Shown: piece after piece, positions 5,489 to 51,200 of the stretch | How the letters are laid out: each line of letters starts with the position of its first letter | How positions within the stretch are numbered: position 1 is the stretch's first letter | Origin: Ascidiella aspersa | Lineage: Eukaryota | Assembly (NCBI GenBank): GCA_963924565.1 | Contig: OZ004607.1 | Span: 7,812,001-7,876,000 of the forward strand | Reading direction: 5' to 3' | Length of the DNA: 64,000 nucleotides | The notes under the pieces: generated by a model | Told to the model about the DNA's origin: nothing | The model's database searches: none | Seen by the model: only the letters and a program-made list of their open reading frames with translations | Made by a program: the position numbers and the translations under genes

Positions 5489-6630
5489 TCGTTGTGTTTT
5501 CGGTTAATTTGGAAGTTTTGATTTGTGTTTGATTGATTTTTCTTAAACGTGGACTTGCCTGACGGATATTGACTAGCAGTCCTGTGTTTTTTACTATTTT
5601 GAAAGCCGCCCATGGTGGTTATATTTGTGTCGTCACCGTTCTCTCTCGCGTCCTATAGTCATCGTTTTGTTTGCCTTTTTATCCTTTTTTACTTGAAACC
5701 TGCCCAGATTATTGTTAATTTCCGTTGTTTTTCTCTCGAAATCAGCCAATTGTTTTTGTTTTTTGCATCAGGTCCATTTTTCTGCTTAAAAACAGACTTT
5801 GCCGTCGGCTAAAAAATCTGGCTTGTGTTACGTTTGATTTCGATTTGTCGCGCAAAAAATTATCGTGAGAATTCAAACTTTTTACTGATATTCACAGTTC
5901 GTCTCGTTTGTGCTGTACAAATCTGACCTTCGTTAAAATATACTTGCTTACTGATAGGTTGGAAATTTGACTTGCAGTTCAAGTCACGTTCTTCTTGTAT
6001 AAAGCCAACACATTCGTCGTTTTAATTGGCCGATTGGTTCTGGTATATGCGAGAATTCAAATTAAACTTTTCCATTGTTTTCTTATGGATAGTAAACCAG
6101 TTTTGTTTTTTGTTCCACTCTCCTAAAAGATCTTGCCGTCCATTTTTTCACCAGAAAGTCTTTCATTATATAAGCGCCCCTTGCTTGCAATTGAGGATTT
6201 CGTTTTTAAGAAACGCGCTTGTCTTTTGTTAATATTTACCGTTGTGCATTTTGTAAATTTCTTCGTTAATTTTTAACAGTTTAGCATTTTTTTAACTTTT
6301 ATTGAAGGAGATTAGTCGTGTGTGCCTTTTTTAGTGGGTCATGGTCGCTTTAATTTGGTTTACCTAATCGAGTTTTAAAGTTAAATTCTGCTTTATCTTA
6401 GTTTACTGTTTGTGGCCAACTGAGATTACTACCTGTTACCGTTTTTTTCAAACGCCATTGAAGTATATTACTTTTTTTGTTTTTTAAGAACAATCGCCAT
6501 ATTGCTGTTTTATATTGTAAATATGTGTAAAATCAATTTCAGGTTTACAGCTTATACTAAGAAATGCAGTTTCTCACGCATAAACGAGTTCAAAAACGTT
6601 ATTCTATAATATTCGGAAACTATTCAAATC

Positions 6631-7086
6631 TTTGTATTACTGTAAGTTTTGTAGTACTGTAAGTTTTGTAGTACTGTAAGTTTTGTAGTACTGTAAGTTT
6701 TGTAGTACTGTAAGTTTTGTAGTACTGTAAGTTTTGTAGTACTGTAAGCTTTGTAGTACTGTAAGCTTTGTAGTACTGTAAGCTTTGTAGTACTGTAAGT
6801 TTTGTAGTACTGCAAGTTTTGTAGTACTGTAAGTTTTGTAGTACTGTAAGCTTTGTAGTACTGTAAGTTTTGTAGTACTGTAAGTTTTGTAGTACTGTAA
6901 GTTTTGTAGTACTGTAAGCTTTGTAGTACTGTAAGTTTTGTAGTACTGTAAGTTTTGTAGTACTGTAAGTTTTGTACTACTGCAAGTTTTGTATTACTGT
7001 AAGTTTTGTAGTACTGTAAGTTTTGTAGTACTGTAAGCTTTGTAGTACTGTAAGTTTTGTAGTACTGTAAGTTTTGTAGTACTGTA
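6631..7086. repeat. 17-bp minisatellite (GTAGTACTGTAAGTTTT)n, ~27 copies
   Basis: Directly visible; explains the 17-aa periodic ORF 6624..7130. Confidence 0.97.
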
Positions 7087-7849
7087 CAAAATAATCGCTG
7101 TTGACTAAATAAGATTACAACCTTGTACATTTCAATCTATCTTACTTTTTTTTACTTTTTGCAGGTGTATAAAAACAATCACTTTATTGCTGTAACCCGA
7201 ATCATATGCCGCGGAGATTGTTGTTTCAAGTGTAATTACCTTATCACACGCGTGCAGTATTTAATCGACTTCCATTGCCACGTGCCTCACTTTTATCTTT
7301 CGAATGCTTCCGTATTAAGCTGACGCTCACCGTCCTATTACGCTTTGCAGTTAAGTTTCACTATCGTTCAGTCGGTAGCTGCCGTGTTTTCTGTCTGACA
7401 TTTTCGCTCGTACTTTTTATCAATAAAAAAAAAAACTTTACGGATTTGGCAGTTTGAGAAGGAAATCTAACAAACGCCAAACAATTTACAGAAAATGTGA
7501 AACCCCCTTTAACCGGAATACATTTAACATTTGAAAATTGCTATATGATAGGCACTTTGAATTACATTATTTTTTATTGTTAAGAAAGATATTTTTTGCA
7601 CGTGCATTTTGAAGAGCTTGTGGGCATAGCAAATATAATTCTGTTTTACAGAAATGCATACTTACAGCTTACAAGTGACGGCGGAGTAGGCTGTTATGGT
7701 GATTTTTGGTAATAGTGGCAGTTCAAAACTTTGTTGATGTTATTTGAACTGAAGTAAATATTTAGTTTTAGATCCTAATTATACTGATTGACTTATCTGT
7801 TTAAAAACCCTGCTATATTCAGTTAAAAACGTCAAAAGATCATTTGAAT

Positions 7850-36200: not shown

Positions 36201-39200
36201 GCTTTTAGAGGCCTGCAACTCAATAGTCGAAGATAGGCCGGCCTACAATCCTAAAGCACGTCTGTTTCACAGTGGCCTTGTTCCCCAATAGCCATACTTA
36301 GGCCGGCCTGCAATCCTAAAGCAAACCTGTTTCACGGTGGCCTTGTTGCCCAAAAGCCATACTTAGGCCAGCCTACCTAAAGCAAGTCTGTTTCAAAGTG
36401 GCCTTGTAACCCAATAGACGAAGATAGGCTGGCCTGTAATCCTAAAGCAAGCTTGTTTCAAAGCGTCCCTGTAACCCAATAGCCTGGCCTGCGCGTCCGG
36501 GATGCTGGACTCTGTCAGCGCCCGCCCGAAACCCTGTAAGGCGTCGTGCGTCATTCGGTGCGCCGCAATTGTGCCGGCGATCAATAGCCCGGGACCAAAA
36601 TAGCACCAGGACGAACACAAAGGGAGCGAAAGTCGCCCGTTAAGTTGCTGCCACTGCTTGTTCCGTTAGCCGCTTCCGCGCAGGTCGGAGCGCTTTTGGC
36701 GTGTTTACGGCGCGATCTTGTGTCCTGGAAGCGTGCATTTAGACGCTCGGTCCAGTGTCGGTCCTCCCCTTATGGCAAGATAAGGCAGAAAGGCTCTGTT
36801 ATTTTATTTGGTACCCGGATTTAACGATGCTATTACAGTATATAAATATCTGCCAACTTACATTTCTAACGGATTTCGCCTTGAATTAAGGCGCCGAAAG
36901 ACCTTAACACATTTTGTGACGTTCCACGAGGCGTGCGTATACAACAACCAACGGAAATATAAAAATAAGACGGCACTGCCGCAGAATATACTCCCGATTA
37001 GCTTTACGTGGCAGCTTTTTAATCGAATAAAGTTGACGATCTTTGGGTATAAACTGGTGTTGCCTTCAGGTTTATACTGGCGAATGACGCGAATAAGCCG
37101 TTTTTGCGTAAAATTAACTGGCCAATGAGAGTTGAAGTTAATGGCCCATCACCTGGATTATATGCTTTTATGTAACGCCAATGTCATTTTCTGAAACACT
37201 TAACTTTTTAACCTGGTATTCCACTATTTTGCTTACTTGTAAAACCGGAAGGCTGTATCAGCTTTTCAAACAAGGAAGTTTATAAAATACGTGGGTGGTA
37301 TAACAATATACAAACTACCTATTGTACAAAAGCTGTGAAATATTTCAATGAAATTCGTTGATCCTAAATCCTAACATTCGTCTACCAATTTAAAAAAATG
37401 TTGCGAGTACCTCTTAACCTAAACATTCTACTGGTCCAAGTTTGCGAACCACTGCTGGTGTTACTTGAGTAATACCCACATCAGGGTAAATACTTAAAAC
37501 AAGGAATCATAAATTCAAATGTATAGCTGTAATTATTATTGGAGTACATAGGTTGCGGATTTTGTTAAGGACTTTAATCCCTACAATAAGATGTGAAGTT
37601 TCGCAACTTAGATGTCGGACTGTCGGTGCAGGTCTGCATCAACAGGCGACAACCCTTGCTATTTAGTTATATATTACCAAATAGACAGCTGTAATATTAC
37701 ACGGAAATTACAGTTTAAAAATCAGTAAAAGTAGTGTAATTTTATAAGATAAGAATTTCTCAAGCAAACAAGTCTACCTATTTACTAGAATTTTTTTTAC
37801 AAATAAAAACAGTAGCCATGATTTTCTTAGAAAGGCACTTTTTCAAAGTGTGGTCAATACATAAGAACTCTATGTTTAAAAAAAATAAAGGTTTTCAGCC
37901 TCATCTTGTAAACGCTATCTGTATCATGCCGCCAACAGATTTTCTGTTTTATTATTTTAAATAGAGCCCCACCACTAAATACACTCATAAACACAGACTC
38001 CTTGAAACAAAAACTTAACGGAAGAGCTTGTTTAGAGAGAGCATTAATCATTCATGCTTGCGTAAGCGTGCGGCAAACTTGCGTGGACGTTATCTCGGCG
38101 TTCTGTCACGTACGTTAACCGCTCTGTTATCCGATGCGTCATCAGGACTTTACCGCACATAGACAACGCACACGCCTTAAGAATAAGCAAGGTCCTAGAA
38201 ATGACCTGGGCAAACTTGGCGCGCCGATTTTTTTGGCAATATGTCGGAGAGTTGTGCGGCTAATAGAGATGATTTTTTTATACAGTCCTTGCATTGACTT
38301 TAGCAATCCAGCAAACACACTTTTAGCTAGAAATGCAGTAAGGAAGCTAGGATTCGTACGCGGCGCGAGTTAATTTTAAATTTGGTGCAAGTCTTTAAGT
38401 TATGGGCTTCATGTTTATTGCAAGTTCAGTTAAAATAAACGTCCCAACGATAAGTGAAACAAGAAGTTGTTTTAAAAGTTGTGTTCCAGGTTCAAATACT
38501 TGCATAAATTATAAAGGCCATTTTATGTTTTAATGGCTTAATTTAAGTAAATGTTCAGATTTCGTGAAACATGTAAAGCTACGTTTTATGTATAATGGGT
38601 TCCATTTTGGTTGTTTTATGATTATTATATACAAATCTTAAACGCAATAAACACTGTTGAAAATCAGGTTTTACTATTCTGAATATAAACACTGCTACTC
38701 TGGTTAAACATTAAATAATAAATACATAGCAGTTATCCGACCTTTGACCTTTCAACCCTCTATGTCACAGGTCAGCGAGGGCGTTGGAATTCTCAAGGTG
38801 GAGGTGTCCAGGAATTCGGGGGCCAGGGGGAGGGTGATTGTCCCCTACAAGACGATCCCCGGAACCGCCAAGGGAGGAGGCGAGGACTTTATCGACGCAA
38901 TTGGGGAGCTCGAGTTTGAAAACGACGAGACGACGTAAGTTTTTTTTGTTTTGAAAGAAATTTCTCGCAGTAAATAGGGATTCTATATGTAACCGAGTGT
39001 TGCTCATCCAGCAGTTTTATTAAAACAGAACAATGTTATTTTATTTGCAGTAGTTATAGCCTATGATTACAAGTCGTTAATGGATATAAGTGAAACATTA
39101 TTAGACGTTGCGCTTCACCATAATCCGATATCATTGCAATGATAAAAGGCGTAATATAGCTATTTAAATTTCCCACGATATACTAAAATATGATTAACAT

Positions 39201-42200
39201 ATAGAATCCTGAAATCAGCTATTGCTGACAGGCATCGTGTATAACCGAGTATTGCTCATCCAGCAGTTTTATTATAAACAATAGACGTTTTCAAGTGCTA
39301 TACAAGACACTTTCATCAGGATAATGCAATTGCAAGCAATTTGTCACATTATAAGTAATCTGTTTTGCAAGATATGCCATTATCCTGATGAAAGTGTCTC
39401 GTATAGGACGTCGAAACTAAGTTGAATCGTCGATTGTTTATAATAAAACTGCTGGATGAGCAATACTCGGTTATACATTATGCCTGGCAGCAATAGCTTA
39501 TTTTAGGATTCTATGTTAATAATATTTTAGTATATCGTGGTAAAATTTAAATGTCCATAAAACGTATTTTTTATTGGAAAGATATCGGATAGTACTGAAA
39601 TGTAACGTTTGACAATGTTCCACTTATATCAATTCACGATTTGAAATGATTTGCTATAACAACTGAAAATATAATAACATGGTTCTGATATAACTATAAC
39701 CATTGGACGTTGAGTTATAGTAGAGCGACATCTTAAATACGTTCTGTTTTTAAATAATTGTATATTTTTTTTATCATATGTACGATTCTCAAGTCTTCGA
39801 AATATGTTCCTTAGTAATTATAAATTTCTGTCCATAATCTCTGATCAGGACCGTTTTTATTTTTTGGCTTTTATCCAAGATTTTGACCAGGTCATATATT
39901 TTATCTATTTATAATTTTTAATTTCTAACTTCATATTAAAATGTAGTCACTTTAGTGTTTAGGCCTATTGTAAGCCTAATTAAATGCGAAGAATATTTGT
40001 CTATCTTTATTAACAGTTTTTTTACATTAAGATTATTAGCCTTGTGTAGAACATAGATAATGTATTTTGGAGAACATAAAAGTAACATCTTCGGTTTTCA
40101 AACCGCTCTCTTTCTACTTTCTCTGCTCCTTCTTAGTTCTTCTATAGTTCAAAAAACTCATGCTTCATTTAAACCAACTTAACGGTCGAGCGTACAATGA
40201 CCTTTCAACTGTCGTCTTATCCAGCTGTCGCGTCTATTAGTGTCGGCTCTCTGGGAATGCGACTTGACATAATTATAGCTAACTTGTGGTTTAAAATGGT
40301 CCAAGGTTTAAATTTGCGAATGACGCGTATAAGCGGTTTTGCTAATTTTAAAAGCGAACAAAACGAACCGCTAATGGAAGTTTAACGTCAATGGTCCGTC
40401 ACCAAACCGGATTAAATGCTTTTATGTAACGCCAATGTCATTTCCTAAATCACTTTCTGTTCGGCCAATTAATTATTCTAAAGTGGTGGTTTAAGTGTAT
40501 CAATGGGGGTTAAAACTGTTTTTTTTTTAAATGAATCGTCGACAGATTTAACAACACATTCAGAAAGTTTTATTGGATAATGAACAATGTGGGGGTAGTC
40601 TTCACATAGACTACCATGGAAATGGGGCAACATGTGTTTATAAAGATACTAACCACAAAAATACGTTTAGCTGATCGAAGCACCACAAGCCCGCATAAAA
40701 ATCAAACGGTTATTAAGGTTTGATTGTCGACTAAATGGATCTCATAAAAGATTTGAGGTTTACTTGTAATCCTGTTGGTTCGATATGGATCAGTTAGACC
40801 AGTGGTTCTCAACCATTTACTTTCTTGGCCCAATTTCGTTGCACAAAAATTATGTGGCCCAATAAATGTTTATGAAAAAACAACTATATGAAATAGGTTT
40901 AGAACAAAACACAGCAGAACATGTTTGAAAACAGATTATTTCTTTAACCGTACAATAGTGAGATACTAGCTGCTGAACAATATATTTACCTTCCTTCTGT
41001 AAAATTAAGTGTAGTGACACAAATAAAACTTAATTCTTCATTAAATCTAGCTTTATAAAATTGGTCTGTGGCTCACTCAAAATGTTCCCATGGCCCACTA
41101 GTGAGCCATGGCCCACTGGTTGAGAACCGCTGAGTTAGACGAAGAACCTTGCCTGCTAATCATATAAATCCAAAAAGCAGCGCAATTTACAAAAGCTTTT
41201 GGGCGGGTTTGCTGCATAGCTTGATTAAGCAAAGGTGGAGATCGTTTACTCTTGATGGTGAAATTATCTCTTAGGCAAAAACCGGATCGAGGTATAGGCC
41301 AGTTTCCATGGACGCTTTTAATTGGTGCAGACTTCCCTACCAAGTCATGTTTTTATGTTTTCCATTTTGGGTCTACAGTAGTAACGTGACGTCTCTACAT
41401 TCAGCCCCGACACACCTATTTTCGCCCTGCTTTATACGATTTGTGCACAGCTAAGAAGTAAACCGTCATTAGCTGAAGACCGCCTGTGAAAATACGTCAC
41501 GAATTCTTTGATATTTTTAAACAGAAAAGCTTGTCTCGACGATATGCAACAAAGCAATAAAACAATTTACAGCCTTTTGTATAGGGCTGTGAAAACAGGC
41601 TAATCAATACTTTTTCATTCATTAATCATTTAGAGAAGATAGGATAAAACACTATAGCCCCAAAAAACTGGCGCCTTCTAAACAACATCGTAAACAATGG
41701 CGTCACGATTTTTTTTCTGTCTTAAGCGCGAGCCGAAGACGTTCAGGTGGCGACCAGGTACGATTTGTCTTCGTGCATAATTCATCCACGTTCATTGGCG
41801 CGCACGTGCCTTTCGCGCGTGAATCGTACGCGTAACGTCTGCGGATTAACGTCCGCAACGTAACGACGTTGAAGATAATTACGCGCGTGATTTCGCAAGG
41901 CGTAAAGAAGCCGTTAACCAAGTCAAGCAGTTTGGCGTTTTATAGTTTGGAAGTTTTATTACGCTGTAGGGTTTTCGCGAATATGTTACCTCTCTAACAA
42001 ATAGCGCGTTTTGTGATTATGTTCGAAAAGTCCCAATTGTACTTCAAGGAAAAATTTAACAAAATGTGATCATTTTTTTTGTTTTTTTTTGCTTTTTTTT
42101 TCCACAAAGTGTGTTTTAGTTTTACTAATTTTTTACTAAAATTTGCAAAAAAAATTTAGTGTTACGAAATTTAACTATAATTTTACTGACGTTTTCCCCC

Positions 42201-45200
42201 CAATTCGTTTTTTTTAAAAATAGTGTTAAAAAATAGTTGTCAGTTTCAATAACGAAAAGTTTCCCAGTTTCACGAAATGTGATTCAATTTAACGAAGTAA
42301 TTTCTATTTGAAAATGATTTTTACTTGATGAAATTTTTGAAATGATTTTACTTGATGTGATCCATGTTCGCGAAGCTTTTTCAATTTAGCTTACCGTTTC
42401 CGAATTTCATGAATTGTAAAAAAATCCCGTCATGTTATCCTACACAATATCTAATGTTATTTGCTGCAAAACGCAATACAACACTTTATACAGTTCGAAC
42501 TCTCCTAAAAGCCTGTAGGTGTATTCTACGTCAAATCAAGCAAACAAACGTCCTATACGTGGAATTCCGCTACACCTGTTTTACCGCGCTCGAGCACGAA
42601 ATCAGTGTGGTCTCCAAATTGCCATCTGCGCATTTATTGTAGTGAGACAGTCGTTGTATGTCGTTGCAAGAGAGAAGGACGTCTATTCGAGACTAATGAA
42701 TAATTCAAATCACCACCTTGCAATGATCGCCCGATCCGGAGCACTACTCTGTCGCTTGGTGTATTGAGGATTGGGCTCAGTGCGCTATAATTAACAGGGC
42801 AAAATTAAAACAAGAAATTTTTGTAGACAAAGCCTTTGGCTGCCATTGTCAACGGACTTTAGGATTTTTTGGTAGATGGTGATAAAGAATGTCGCTCTTC
42901 ATAGACGTGAATGATTTTAAAAGGATTTCAGTAAATACCTGTCAGAAATTCCTATATTAAGAACCGCCGAACAATATTTCCTAATTTGAAAACAAAAAGA
43001 GTCTTGTATAAAGTGATAACAGCGAAAATTTTAAATGTCACAAATAATTTTTTAACCCTGGTGATTTGATCACGGCGAAATTTTACTTTGAGGTACTGCA
43101 CTGCAATTGCACGCCCAACACACACTCAATAACCCACGCACACACGTTCAACAGTGCCTTCATCTGTCTAGCACATCAAATAGAAGACCCTCGTGTTTAC
43201 TATTATATTAAACCGACCGATGTTAATTGATTCCGGCAATAATCGAAATTCCCGTCAAAGATTTTTTTCGTTTCGACGTCGATCAACCGCGACCCGCGAC
43301 CCGACGATCGACCAGGATCAAATTGGTCGAAAGATAATCGCACTTTCTCTGTCAGCCTAGGTTTACGTGGGTAGGAACCCGCTTAATGTCCTTACGATCG
43401 TTACTGAATCGCCCGATATATATTTTTAGCACAATTGTGAATGGATCAGTGTAACAAAATTCCAGCAATGTATTAAAAGCAGTGTATAAACATTTTGAAA
43501 AGCAAGGAGAAGCTCTTTTAACTTAATTTAAACTTTATTAGTATATTTTGGAAAATGTTAGACCAATTCTGCTAATTTGGTTTTTACTTAAAAAATTGAC
43601 TTGGCAAAGTTATTGCTTAGGTTCGTAAATTCCACAGCTATACAATTTTTAAATGTATAAGTGCAAGGTTTTCTTAGATTTGAAGCTACAATTAATGGCC
43701 ATCCAAACTTCGATGTCTTTAAATTGGCCACTAAATTTCCCAAAAGACCGATCGAGTAACGCACGAATTAGTTTCCTCCCACGCTTACCAGTACGAGCGA
43801 ACTACTTGCTATTACAAAGTGCGTTAAAATTTTAGGCTGAGGGTCACTGCCTTTAGAAGTTTGTGCTCTATTAAACGCTGTTTTTAGCACGCCTCACTGG
43901 GCATAAATTTCCACAATCTGTTAAATTGCTAAGCGTTTTAGGCAATTACTTTTAATCCGAAGTTAAAGATAATCTAAATTCTAGATCGATTAATCGGGCG
44001 AAGTGCGGATTAATTTTGAATCACGTATTTAATTTCGCGGATTAAAAAATAGGATTGGTTATGGTTGCACTATACACTGTGGAATCATTTACCATACATG
44101 TGACCATACTGAAAAACAGGAACGTATTTTAAATATGTGCCTCCCTCCTTGGCACATGTTTCAAGGCACCAGAAAAATTGTTATGACAGACACAAAATGC
44201 AAAAGTGTGTGCAGCCATTTACTGAAAAATATATAAAAGTATCACTTGGCCAACTGACTCGATAACAACCCCTTGTTTTTTTAACCTTTTGCTACTTGTG
44301 GTTAAATTTGTGGCCAAAAATAAAAGAAAAACAGAAATCAAAAAAAGAAAAAATAAATGAATCTCCCTATTGATTTATCATGCTTATTCGCGAAAACGCA
44401 AAACTTGTACCAATGTTTTACTTAACATTTTATTTAGGAGCCTATGATACAAGATTTCGCGTGTTTGCCTTTGGTAGGCCCCGAACCTTAAACGCCCAGA
44501 GCCATTGCCTGAAAATTGCCTTGTATAAGGAACATAGAGTAAACCGATTGTTTTTTCAACCTGAACAACAACAGAAAGTGCATTCACGTGCAAATCGTGG
44601 ACGACGAGGAATATGAGAAGAACAAGAGCTTTTCCATTGAGATCGCGACGCCCAGAATCGTGGCCGAGGACGGCGAGTCAGGTTTGTGGCATCCGTCAGT
44701 CGCCACTGACAGGAACACTTGCCGTGTCCGCATGCCAGTGTTCTTAGTGTGTGTCGCGAGGCTTGGGCTTCGGTAGGATGCTCGGTTTGTTCATTGTCAT
44801 GTCTTGGAGTCTCTGGCGTTTGTTTGCTTTTATCACGCCGTGGCCACGTCACTGTTGTCGTTGTTTTATTTTGTTGTTGTAGTTGCGGAATGAGTTGTCC
44901 ACTTTCATGTTTGCCTGATCTTTACGTAACGTTTTGCCTGAAAGAGTCCGTTTTCGACTCACAGAAATCACGCTTTGCTTAGGGAGAATATTAACATTGC
45001 GTTTACAGCAAATTAGAGCGTATAGCGCTTTTTTATTGAAGGCAGCAGCCTCTGTCCATTCCTGGCTAAGAAACATTTTCTTAGATAATTTTCTTTATGG
45101 GTAAACTTCCATGGATTTACATTAAAAATTCCAAGATTTTGACGTCCTATGCAAAACAACTGAATTGGGGTGTTACAAAGTAATGTCACAAGGCGTTTTG

Positions 45201-48200: not shown

Positions 48201-51200
48201 AAGGTTAAACGCTTCCAAGCTATTTTTTTATCGAAACCCCTAATGGTGAATAAGAATCTGACCTTGGGTAGATTACTCATAACTTTTGGAGTGTAACTCT
48301 TACAATACTCCTACAACTCGGAAAAAATGTGTAAAGAAGAAACGGGCGATATCAATTCATGTCAATTTGCATGGTGTGGCTCTTTGTGGCGCTAAACCTG
48401 ACTACAAAATAAAGATCTGTGACGGTGTCGCCACCCTCGTCCCAAAGCATGGGCGCAGGCGCGGCGTTTGAACTCCCAAGGTCGCGTTAGGGGTGTAACG
48501 TGAAGCACTGGGCCACGCATTCTCTTAAGCCGGGAAGACGCGCAGACGTTACGCACGTGTGGGAATGTAAGGCCCCAGTCATGGCGCGTTTGTTCCTTGT
48601 AAGCAGAGCGACGCACCGACGCCCCGGGCTGCCTTGACGCGCTCCTCTTCTAGAGTTACCACCGTGGACGATGTTATCGATGCCTGTGCGACCGAGAAAT
48701 TCTAAAAACCTGCCATTTTGGAAGCGGTTTTCTTTAGCTGAAAGTACTTGTTTTTTAAGACAAGTGAGACGAACGTTGCTCTACAGCTGCGTCCACTTGT
48801 TGAGTGGAAAAATTGTTGCCCCAACTCACTTGCGCCTGGTCTAACGGTGAATGTTGGTGGACCAATTTTGTACGACACGTTGTGTGGCTTCTCTAGCCGT
48901 TTTTCAGTTTATCTTTTTTAACTTTACATTTTAAGGTATTTAAACCCTAATTGAAAGCAAATCAAACTCAACTGTAAACTGTCGTTCAACCGTTGTACGT
49001 GGCCATTATTTTGGCATTTCACCCATAGACGCACAAAATGCTTGGCATTCCCATCCATGTTGTGTTTTTCACTGAAGTTTTGTCCTGTGCACTTTTATGA
49101 GATTTAATGTCACTAGGGATAAGTTCATTTGTATAATAAAACCAATTGCGTGTTTGCCTCGAATCGTTGGTAATAACAGCAGGAGTTTCGCTTTAATTTA
49201 CAAAGGGCCCTTTTATTGAGCTTTTATTCCACAGTCAATGCCCCCGTCAGGCCGCCCACCATTTGCAAATCTCGCGTGTCGAATCTCTGATAAGGCGCAA
49301 ACGAGACTTTCAAAGTCGTATGAAAACCATCCGAAGTTGGTTGACGACACAATAAACTCAGGAGCCTCGGTAATAGGCAGCTGTTGGCTATTTTGTGGAT
49401 AAAGTGTTGGCGTATATTCACGTATTGCTGATTGCTTGGGATGATTAGCGAGCGCTGGATATTCGTGTCATGGGTTCACGAGTTCACACGTTTTACGCAC
49501 AAAGTTTTTGCCGGCAAACTTTCAAGTAACATGTGCAATTGGAGAGGTAACATTTTTCAAACAGTGACAGTCCGCACATTTTTACTAACGTTTCGAGCGG
49601 GTTAGGACTTAATTAACATTATCCAAACCGTACGGGCAATTTTGCTTGTTTTTGCTTTGAAGAGCTAGTAAAATGAGATATAATTATTCCTTCATCTGAC
49701 AATTAATATAAGGTAAAATGATAAGGATACAAAAATGCCGTAATGCAGACCACAGGATTTCATATATGGCAATATCCGGACTGCAACATATTTCGAACTC
49801 TATATAGAGTCTGGCTTTAACTTGAATCTTATCATGCAACTCATGGCCCCTAACAACTATAGGTAAAACTAAGTTTGGTTGATTTGATATTATAAGCTTG
49901 AACTTCTTATTACCTGAGGAACAATCCCAACGCCAAGACTCTTAACCCCGCTCTCAGAAGATCTTCCTGCCTCTTTTCTCTTTATCTTCATCATCTTCTG
50001 CTTTCCTGTCCTTCGTTTTTTTCGGACTTTCCTCCATTAAGAAGCCACTGAGAGTGTTTTGATTTAACCCGGGCTGGCGTTTGCACAGGGCGTTGCTGCA
50101 CGTGAAAATCATCGACAGCAACTGCTACCATAAGCACGCCAAATTCCGGATATCGCTCTGCGCGCCCTACGAGCCTAGCAAGTCATTCGGTGAGTATAAT
50201 ACACTTCGGCAACGTTAAACCGCCCGGGAAAAGTGGGTTAATTTAACATTGAACCTTCTTCACGAAGAAGCAATGATCAACTAACACGTCCCTGAAATCG
50301 CATAGGTTCCAGTTTAAAAGTGTATCTGTTTTGCGTGTTGTATTTAGCGTAGGCGTACATCTAGTCGTGCATGGTTTGTGTTGCATTTGTGACGTGGAAT
50401 CGCACCACCTGCTTTATAGTCTGCACTTGTGCTCCATAAAACAAAACATATATGCGTTTTGAAAGCTGTGAATATGGTTAACATACTGAAGTGAAAACGT
50501 TTTCAAAAGTAGCTTCAATAATGAAAATGTGTCAACTTTTATTTGTTAACGAAATTTTTTTATCATAAAACAAACTCCACATTCTGTGTCCCATTTTGAT
50601 TTAGGTATCACCGAAAATTATGTATTTTTCGTTGTAAAAATATATTTGCGTCTTTAGCAGTTAAACTGCTGTTTCCTTCCAAACCAAATATTTCTCACAC
50701 AACGTTGACCACATTGGGTTAAATTTTTCGTTTAAATAAGTTACGGCCCTTATTCCAAACACAAAACCTACATTTGCAAATTAACAAAAAAATGTTTAAA
50801 TAAATAAAATACCTAAAAATTCTCACGTCCCCAATAATCTTTGTTCCGGACGTTGCAGGAACGGACGTTGGCAGCGACTCGGGGATCAACGGGAAGGGAG
50901 ACGACGAGTCCAACAAGACGATCTCGGAAGAAGAAGAGGAGGCAAGAAGGATCGCAGAGCTGGGGAAGCCCCGACTCGGAGTCAACCCGAGCATTGAGAT
51001 CGTGATTGAGGAGAGCTACGAGTTTAAGGTAAACACAAATACAAGTGTCGGGGTCTTATGTTTCCGCTTCCAATCGCTTTTTGATCTAATTGTTCCTTTC
51101 AAATCTCCTCCTGGTATAATTGTTCCGTTTCGATTTCCTCCCTTATCTAATTGTTCTCCAACAATTATTCCTCTTGATCCATTGTTCCTCCTCCACATGG

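Follow-up and report, generated by a model that had tools for sequence, protein, structure and literature searches.

A hairpin in an NCX intron of Ascidiella aspersa, probably left by a Penelope-like insertion with an inverted copy of its own landing site

The hairpin and its host intron

The DNA analysed here, hereafter the window, is a 64,000-nt stretch of the Ascidiella aspersa genome (OZ004607.1, forward strand, 7,812,001–7,876,000). It contains an NCX gene in which the exon for the start of CBD2 is followed by a donor at 38935, and a long palindrome sets in ~45 nt past this donor (Table 1). The comparisons described below make it probable that this palindrome stems from an old 5′-truncated insertion of a Penelope/Poseidon-type retroelement with an inverted copy of itself and of ~190 bp of its landing site, that its hammerhead ribozymes are inactive, and that the ~670-nt hairpin is edited as a by-product.

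The palindrome (39020–39693) is imperfect, its arms (39020–39336 and 39337–39693) sharing 78.2% identity over 692 aligned columns, and it is the sole long one among the inverted repeats of the window. The minimum free energy (MFE) of the hairpin is –353.8 kcal/mol, compared to –154.7 ± 5.9 kcal/mol for shuffled sequences (z = –33.75; 0 of 20 shuffles equally stable). By this alignment and fold, the long palindrome just past an exon donor that a first-pass annotation had described is real. Identity is uneven along the arms, with 137 of 150 inner columns identical as against 128 of 163 outer ones (p = 0.002), and arm-to-arm conversion is a possible cause. In terms of percentages (39365–39693 against 39020–39336), it declines from ~91% near the centre to ~79% outside.

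Pieces from both arms occur in the sequencing runs X1, X3 and X4. X1 is DNA-like and reflects a polymorphic organism, with 14 differences in ~600 bp. The kind of run X4 is unrecorded; it is RNA-like by a 2415-nt contig in which the CBD2 exon is joined on one side to the exon before it and on the other to exon 5A.

Table 1. Coordinates of the features in and around the palindrome, numbered from the first letter of the window
Feature	Position	Strand	Basis
Host NCX exon, start of CBD2	38771..38934	+	E = 4.9e-22 to NCX1 chains
13-bp target-site duplication, left	38978..38990	+	13-mer recurs at 39197–39209 (exact) and 39506–39516 (2 nt missing)
Segment a, 37 nt, pseudo-LTR 3′ end without tail, inverted	38991..39027	–	94.9% to 39435–39473
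Segment b, inverted copy of downstream host intron flank (39506–39693)	39020..39209	–	Genome search
Segment c, inverted 5′-truncated pseudo-LTR with tail	39210..39336	–	77% to tandem full-length element
Damaged minimal hammerhead in segment c, antisense to NCX	39322–39281	–	Fails family descriptor
Segment d, direct 5′-truncated pseudo-LTR with ~31-nt tail (39476–39505)	39337..39505	+	Sequence comparison
Loop of the hairpin, unpaired 5′ stretch of segment d	39337..39364	+	Fold; arm alignment begins at 39365
Sense copy of the minimal hammerhead, damaged (nominal cut after 39431)	39382..39434	+	Family alignment, descriptor, fold
Outer right arm: right target-site duplication (39506–39516) and original flank of the host intron	39506..39693	+	Genome search, alignment
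Ten A>G differences (39203, 39206, 39217, 39234, 39243, 39244, 39251, 39271, 39274, 39276)	39203..39276	+	X4 contig
Three A>G differences (39622, 39626, 39632)	39622..39632	+	X4 contig (record 8), depth 6.0
NCX exon 5A, 107 nt	44575..44681	+	Splice-aware scan; joined to upstream exon in X4
Candidate NCX exon 5B, 101 nt	50089..50189	+	AG/GT, 5A phase, open frame, second-best intron score

Structure of the insertion

The target-site duplication encloses an insertion at 38991–39505 composed of segments a, b, c and d. Segment d shows 74% identity over 155 nt to the three pseudo-long terminal repeats (pseudo-LTRs) of a tandem element, L078, and its tail carries the first codons of the open reading frame (ORF), with an ATG at 39480 and a translation that agrees with the ORF start. 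Segment a starts 10 nt downstream of the hammerhead cleavage site and has neither tail nor hammerhead. An extra rearranged hammerhead copy had been proposed at 38977–39022, and this resolves into the 13-bp target-site duplication followed by 37 nt from the 3′ end of the repeat, which start downstream of the cleavage triplet and have no tail. Judged by sequence comparison, a and d are the normal product of the family, and b and c are extra.

The outer ~190 bp of the arms has two matches in the genome, which are the two arms themselves, and on this search it is unique host intron duplicated inside the insertion. The Penelope-like nature that had been attributed to the arms is therefore confined to the inner ~130–170 bp and does not extend to the outer, single-locus part. 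In the inverted copy the exact 13-mer at 39197–39209 stands after the tail, and b is joined to a through a short A/T-rich microhomology. Along the bottom strand, the flank is followed by d in antisense and the junction, then by d in sense, the tail, the flank again and a in sense.

A part of the left arm is found a second time in the genome. The locus L003 (G000:C8:1957325–1957516) aligns with 39343–39152 over 192 nt at 91% identity, and it includes the inversion junction together with 57 nt of the NCX intron. At diagnostic sites L003 agrees with the left arm in 12 cases and with the right arm in 7, with 10 changes of its own. The junction pattern and the tail-flank pattern each occur at two places only, namely the window and L003. 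L003 sides with the left arm and shares both junctions, which shows that it descends from the left arm and was copied out when the arms were already diverging, by a process that may have been 3′ transduction or templated repair. Inspection of L003 revealed neither a clear target-site duplication nor a clear poly(A). The idea that the left-arm 5′ junction is a subfamily trait was rejected on its occurrence at only two places.

The parent repeat family

Of 388 candidates for the dispersed repeat, 40 were scored and yielded 51 matches; a 26-nt family motif gave 54 exact matches compared to none for the control. Upstream of the repeat in the loci L048 and L049 lie frames for a reverse transcriptase (RT) and a GIY-YIG endonuclease (EN) (RVT_1 E = 1.8e-5). 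L078 (G000:C9:12543000–12548600) consists of a 2.55-kb unit (2553-bp period) in tandem, with three pseudo-LTRs and with RT followed by GIY-YIG (GIY-YIG E = 0.001); tblastn pieces show 36–52% identity to P0002 and P0009, proteins that combine RT with GIY-YIG. The tandem comprises 2.2 copies that are 98.9% alike and carry the same frameshifts in each. All three loci have the single-ORF order of RT and C-terminal GIY-YIG, with broken frames and Pfam scores under the curated cut-offs. The Penelope origin in the first-pass annotation, and its expectation of genomic copies beside RT and GIY-YIG ORFs, are thereby directly borne out.

A zinc-finger-like linker between RT and EN is present in Neptune and Nematis, according to the passages drawn from PMC8557442. 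By inspection, the L078 translations contain no such zinc-finger-like (cysteine) linker. Since RT and GIY-YIG occur without a cysteine linker, the repeat is placed on sequence grounds as an EN+ Penelope-like element (PLE) of the Penelope/Poseidon type, the clade being called from linker inspection.

Among 85 family ends, 48 are tailed and 37 tail-less, the tailed end reaching ~31 nt further on. Head-to-head pairs of a tailed and a tail-less end occur at 11 other sampled loci (L004, L007, L011, L012, L019, L023, L028, L082, L093, L122 and L126). At a further five (L013, L014, L017, L020 and L021; G000:C1:38.14–38.53 Mb) a head-to-head stub has been amplified in an ~835-bp tandem repeat and in segmental duplications, and the hammerhead is damaged in all five sampled stubs. 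A biased sample had suggested an accumulation of 5′ truncations at the hammerhead cut, and this was rejected on the 54 exact-motif copies, whose 5′ ends spread broadly from –157 to +15 with only 2 at –1 or 0. In the text available of 10.64898/2026.07.22.740005, a non-LTR retrozyme is made of tandem units each with an intact hammerhead; this class was ruled out for the present copies, which are head-to-head with damaged hammerheads.

The arrangement resembles that of Pen2a_Av, an EN+ PLE of Adineta vaga with an inverted pseudo-LTR and a tail (PMC3846280; overview in PMC8557442). As described in the excerpts of PMC3846280, shared features are a 5′-truncated inverted pseudo-LTR beside a direct one, a tail of ~31 bp on one end only, first ORF codons within the tail, a target-site duplication of ~10 bp and microhomology junctions. 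Host DNA capture between pseudo-LTRs and self-priming are also proposed there for Penelope elements. The present insertion differs in that no ORF is left and the captured host piece is its own downstream target flank, inverted; such an inverted capture does not occur in those excerpts. The ribozyme side of the locus is ordinary, since minimal hammerheads in truncated Penelope ends that lie head to head have been described before and are common in this genome.

State of the hammerheads

By majority, the motif of the family corresponds to a minimal type I hammerhead that has the core CUGANGA, GAA and UH, a 3-bp helix I, a bulged A, a G10.1–C11.1 pair, a helix II of 5–8 bp (91% of cells paired) and a palindromic ACGU. 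The descriptor is passed by 12 of the 59 family copies that cover the core, and neither arm of the window passes. The hammerhead letters themselves were found where the first-pass annotation put them, with CUGAUGA at 39385–39391 on the + strand and at 39319–39313 on the – strand.

In the + copy, GUC (39429–39431) is followed by GAU, an AATAAA lies downstream, and the base of helix II is weak, with A·C, G·U and U·G pairs, all as previously noted. It also has A in place of G10.1 at 39393, and an 11-nt insertion (39418–39428) breaks the palindromic ACGU of the family. The final letters of this insertion are complementary to the 3′ strand of helix I, as a small template switch would leave. The – copy fails on the first helix I pair, a C·U as had been noted, on G10.1–C11.1 and on the palindromic helix III. 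The perfect stem II formerly ascribed to the – copy is a shifted register reached after four substitutions, with helix III left non-palindromic.

The hammerhead fold of the + copy has a calculated energy of +4.4 kcal/mol versus an MFE of –9.6 kcal/mol, and the corresponding values for an intact family copy are –9.9 (helices I and II only) and –13.3 kcal/mol. Both window hammerheads are damaged and predicted to be inactive. Within the full hairpin the sense CUGAUGA has a pairing probability of 1.0, and it is paired in 5 of 5 transcription prefixes. Folding thus supports the earlier suggestion that the upstream arm masks the sense hammerhead, but the motif to be masked is itself damaged. A regulated, maskable ribozyme is unlikely because the sense motif is damaged on its own.

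Rfam reported no hammerhead in the region (0 of 10 hits, up to E = 10) or in the window. It was likewise blank on three family loci, two of which have an intact motif, and since intact family motifs are missed in the same way, this blank is uninformative. The parts of PMC4209133 consulted deal with the minimal hammerheads of metazoan PLE pseudo-LTRs; they describe cases of dual motifs on opposite strands, 100–700 bp apart, and state that such hammerheads cleave poorly even when intact and need a dimer. The family motif agrees with these in its bulged base between 9 and 10.1, G10.1–C11.1 pair, long helix II, short helix I and palindromic 15.2–16.2; both window copies differ in the loss of defining features. 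Outside this repeat family, a string of the form CUGAAGA...GAAA...GUC lies at 41473 on the + strand of the same intron, without a match to the family unit.

Proposed origin of the inverted copy

In this family the pseudo-LTR lies directly behind the RT and GIY-YIG ORFs, and the insertion between the 13-bp target-site duplications shows the pair of ends usual for the family, with a as the tail-less inverted end and d as the tailed direct end. We propose that both nicked target strands primed reverse transcription, from tail-less and tailed start sites. The bottom-strand complementary DNA (cDNA) would then have primed itself by ~4 nt of microhomology, copied d and run ~190 nt into the host (c and b), followed by a microhomology switch onto the top-strand cDNA (a). 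In the NCX pre-mRNA the arms are predicted to pair and to bury the sense catalytic core; ADAR would edit the duplex, as A>G differences at low depth suggest. Later the left arm gave rise, as its shared features show, to the daughter copy at G000:C8:1.957 Mb.

The first part of this course has a counterpart in Poseidon of Anolis carolinensis, for which in vitro work shows both target strands cut and extended, two internal RT start sites that give tailed and tail-less ends, and a hammerhead cleavage that is dispensable for insertion (PMC11167929, in its available passages). The layout of a and d and the absent truncation peak at the cut site agree with that study and with an unprocessed RNA substrate. 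Fold-back copying into host DNA, on the other hand, is not reported in those passages of PMC11167929, supplements excluded. Such copying of the cDNA is the simplest reading of b and c, and a likely one. The footprint, with its tail-less end, inverted host flank and two tailed ends within one target-site duplication, constrains how Penelope integration is resolved.

A two-step origin, in which a and d came first and d with its flank was later duplicated in inverted form, is possible although not favoured. The second event would have been a read-through re-insertion at the same site or a break repair unrelated to RT. In its favour, b and c require a template with tail and flank already joined, arm identity is uneven, and the daughter copy shows that tail-plus-flank units of this locus can be copied. 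However, the extra copy stands exactly at the head-to-head junction, inside a single target-site duplication and with a microhomology end on a, and a repeat event on one spot is less economical than fold-back copying during one integration.

A>G differences within the hairpin

Among the places that differ, 19 of 53 are A>G in X4 versus 5 of 44 in X1 (p = 0.009). In the left arm, an X4 contig of 151 nt (record 1, depth 2.1) includes unique intron flank and has 17 differences, and all 10 of the listed interior ones are A>G; of these, G at 39251 is found in X1 too, as a common variant of the family. On the right-hand contig (record 8), A>G accounts for 3 of 3 differences inside the hairpin and for 1 of 11 downstream of it, the other 10 being common to X1; at the three inner positions X1 has no G at a depth of 62. 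For these two locus-specific contigs combined, with the third one (record 2) left out of the count, interior A>G amounts to 13 of 13 in the hairpin versus 1 of 11 outside (p = 6e-6), or to 12 of 12 without 39251 (p = 1e-5). In the fold, each of the 15 A>G sites examined lies in an A-U pair, and not one is preceded by a 5′ G (background 4 of 30, not significant). Neither the window nor X1, which is probably from another individual, shows the G letters.

The genome encodes two ADAR-like genes, with dsrm upstream of A_deamin, and one deaminase gene without a nearby dsrm match (the three deaminase-domain genes lie at G000:C8:19.59 Mb, C2:32.52 Mb and C2:12.11 Mb). The clustered sense-strand A>G differences favour the suggestion, made in the first-pass annotation, that the hairpin is an ADAR substrate, and we consider it likely that the hairpin in the sense pre-mRNA undergoes A-to-I hyper-editing. 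In animals ADAR editing of inverted repeats is standard, with clustered A>G in long repeat-derived duplexes and a disfavoured 5′ G, as stated in the sections of PMC9989829 that were available. The present case is similar in its A>G clustering and in having no 5′ G, and differs in that the duplex is mostly host sequence and in that the sea squirt sites of those sections mostly stem from sense-antisense pairing and not from inverted repeats. A single insertion can thus build an editing substrate mostly from host DNA. Literature searches on Penelope with A-to-I editing, intron or hairpin, and on editing in ascidians, returned nothing relevant, subscription papers being largely outside the search.

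It is rather unlikely that the A>G differences are DNA polymorphisms, letters of another genomic copy or errors. X4 and X1 are probably from different individuals, since some linked single-nucleotide polymorphisms differ, and such an explanation gains from this, from the depths of 2–6 and from the polymorphism of the organism. It would still leave a single substitution type, on a single strand, clustered and confined to paired As, and record 1, with its unique intron flank, is without the diagnostic letters of the right arm or of the daughter copy. Editing of the hairpin by ADAR remains the preferred explanation.

Weighing the interpretation

Several observations count against the proposed account. 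The uneven arm identity fits a single event only with later arm-to-arm conversion. Fold-back copying is read from one locus, as an inverted copy of the own flank was found at 0 of 61 other sampled tail ends; an inverted host flank as a family habit was rejected on this count. No empty-site allele was seen in the sequencing runs compared. For the hammerhead, covariation in the family alignment is weak, with 3 double-change pairs and 24 of 500 shuffles scoring as high, and folding energies take no account of tertiary contacts or of assistance by proteins. One X4 contig that crosses the centre (record 2) appears, from end distance and depths, to have G at 39393, which would mean that G10.1–C11.1 is present in that allele or edited molecule. 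As for editing, the evidence comes from one run of unrecorded kind, with contigs at depths of 2 and 6 and without DNA of the same individual; 7 of the 17 differences in record 1 are unlisted ones near the contig ends, one of them G>T, and the changes in record 2 are of several types, with A>C, C>A, C>T and T>C beside A>G.

The NCX gene has downstream of the hairpin an exon 5A and a candidate exon 5B, which are identical at 9 of 24 positions; the second exon 5 was missed by tblastn and recovered by the splice-aware scan. The intron thus leads to an exon 5A and a putative 5B, in keeping with the first-pass annotation. Candidate 5B is without most of the acidic run of 5A, a difference that alters calcium binding in vertebrate CBD2. 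The hairpin is separated by 5 and 10 kb from the alternative exons downstream of it, and only the join of exon 4 to 5A was seen. No evidence for a role of the hairpin in the 5A/5B choice was obtained, and literature searches on NCX with Ciona and mutually exclusive exons gave nothing relevant, with subscription papers largely outside their scope.

A functional hairpin, which would gate an active sense hammerhead or shift 5A/5B splicing through double-stranded RNA binding and editing near the donor, is improbable. Its onset 45 nt past the donor, the presence of arm pieces in three runs, the closer likeness of the inner arms, the apparent G10.1 in one X4 contig and the intact catalytic core letters of the + copy are in its favour. 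However, the ACGU palindrome required for a dimer is broken and the pre-mRNA holds a single sense copy, the alternative exons are far off, and the depths of the exon-intron contigs indicate ordinary splicing to 5A. Of the 62 arm mismatches, 15 are of the G·U type and 12 of the A·C type. As these numbers are about equal, with no excess of G·U, the idea that the arms have been selected for RNA pairing was rejected. The combined possibility that one-step fold-back turned host intron into an ADAR-edited duplex, that this duplex tunes the 5A/5B choice of calcium sensor, and that a daughter carrying host intron was seeded, is held with equally great reserve; a splicing role, if true, would raise the significance of the locus.

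The long palindrome and the target-site duplication might point to a miniature inverted-repeat transposable element or a foldback DNA transposon whose terminal inverted repeats are long, but this is hardly conceivable and was rejected. Such a class requires terminal inverted repeats in many copies, and the outer arms consist of host DNA from one locus; what the duplication encloses is a, b, c and d together and not the two arms, and the repeat part runs into RT and GIY-YIG.

Other observations

A sample of ~6/100 of the raw RNA run X5 gave reads on repeat parts only and none on the exon or the unique arms, and is uninformative for the locus, for cleavage ends and for small RNAs. Elsewhere in the window, 2836–2910 has a tRNA-like Rfam match (43.2 bits), and a tandem minisatellite at 6620–7140 is visible as repeated open frames.

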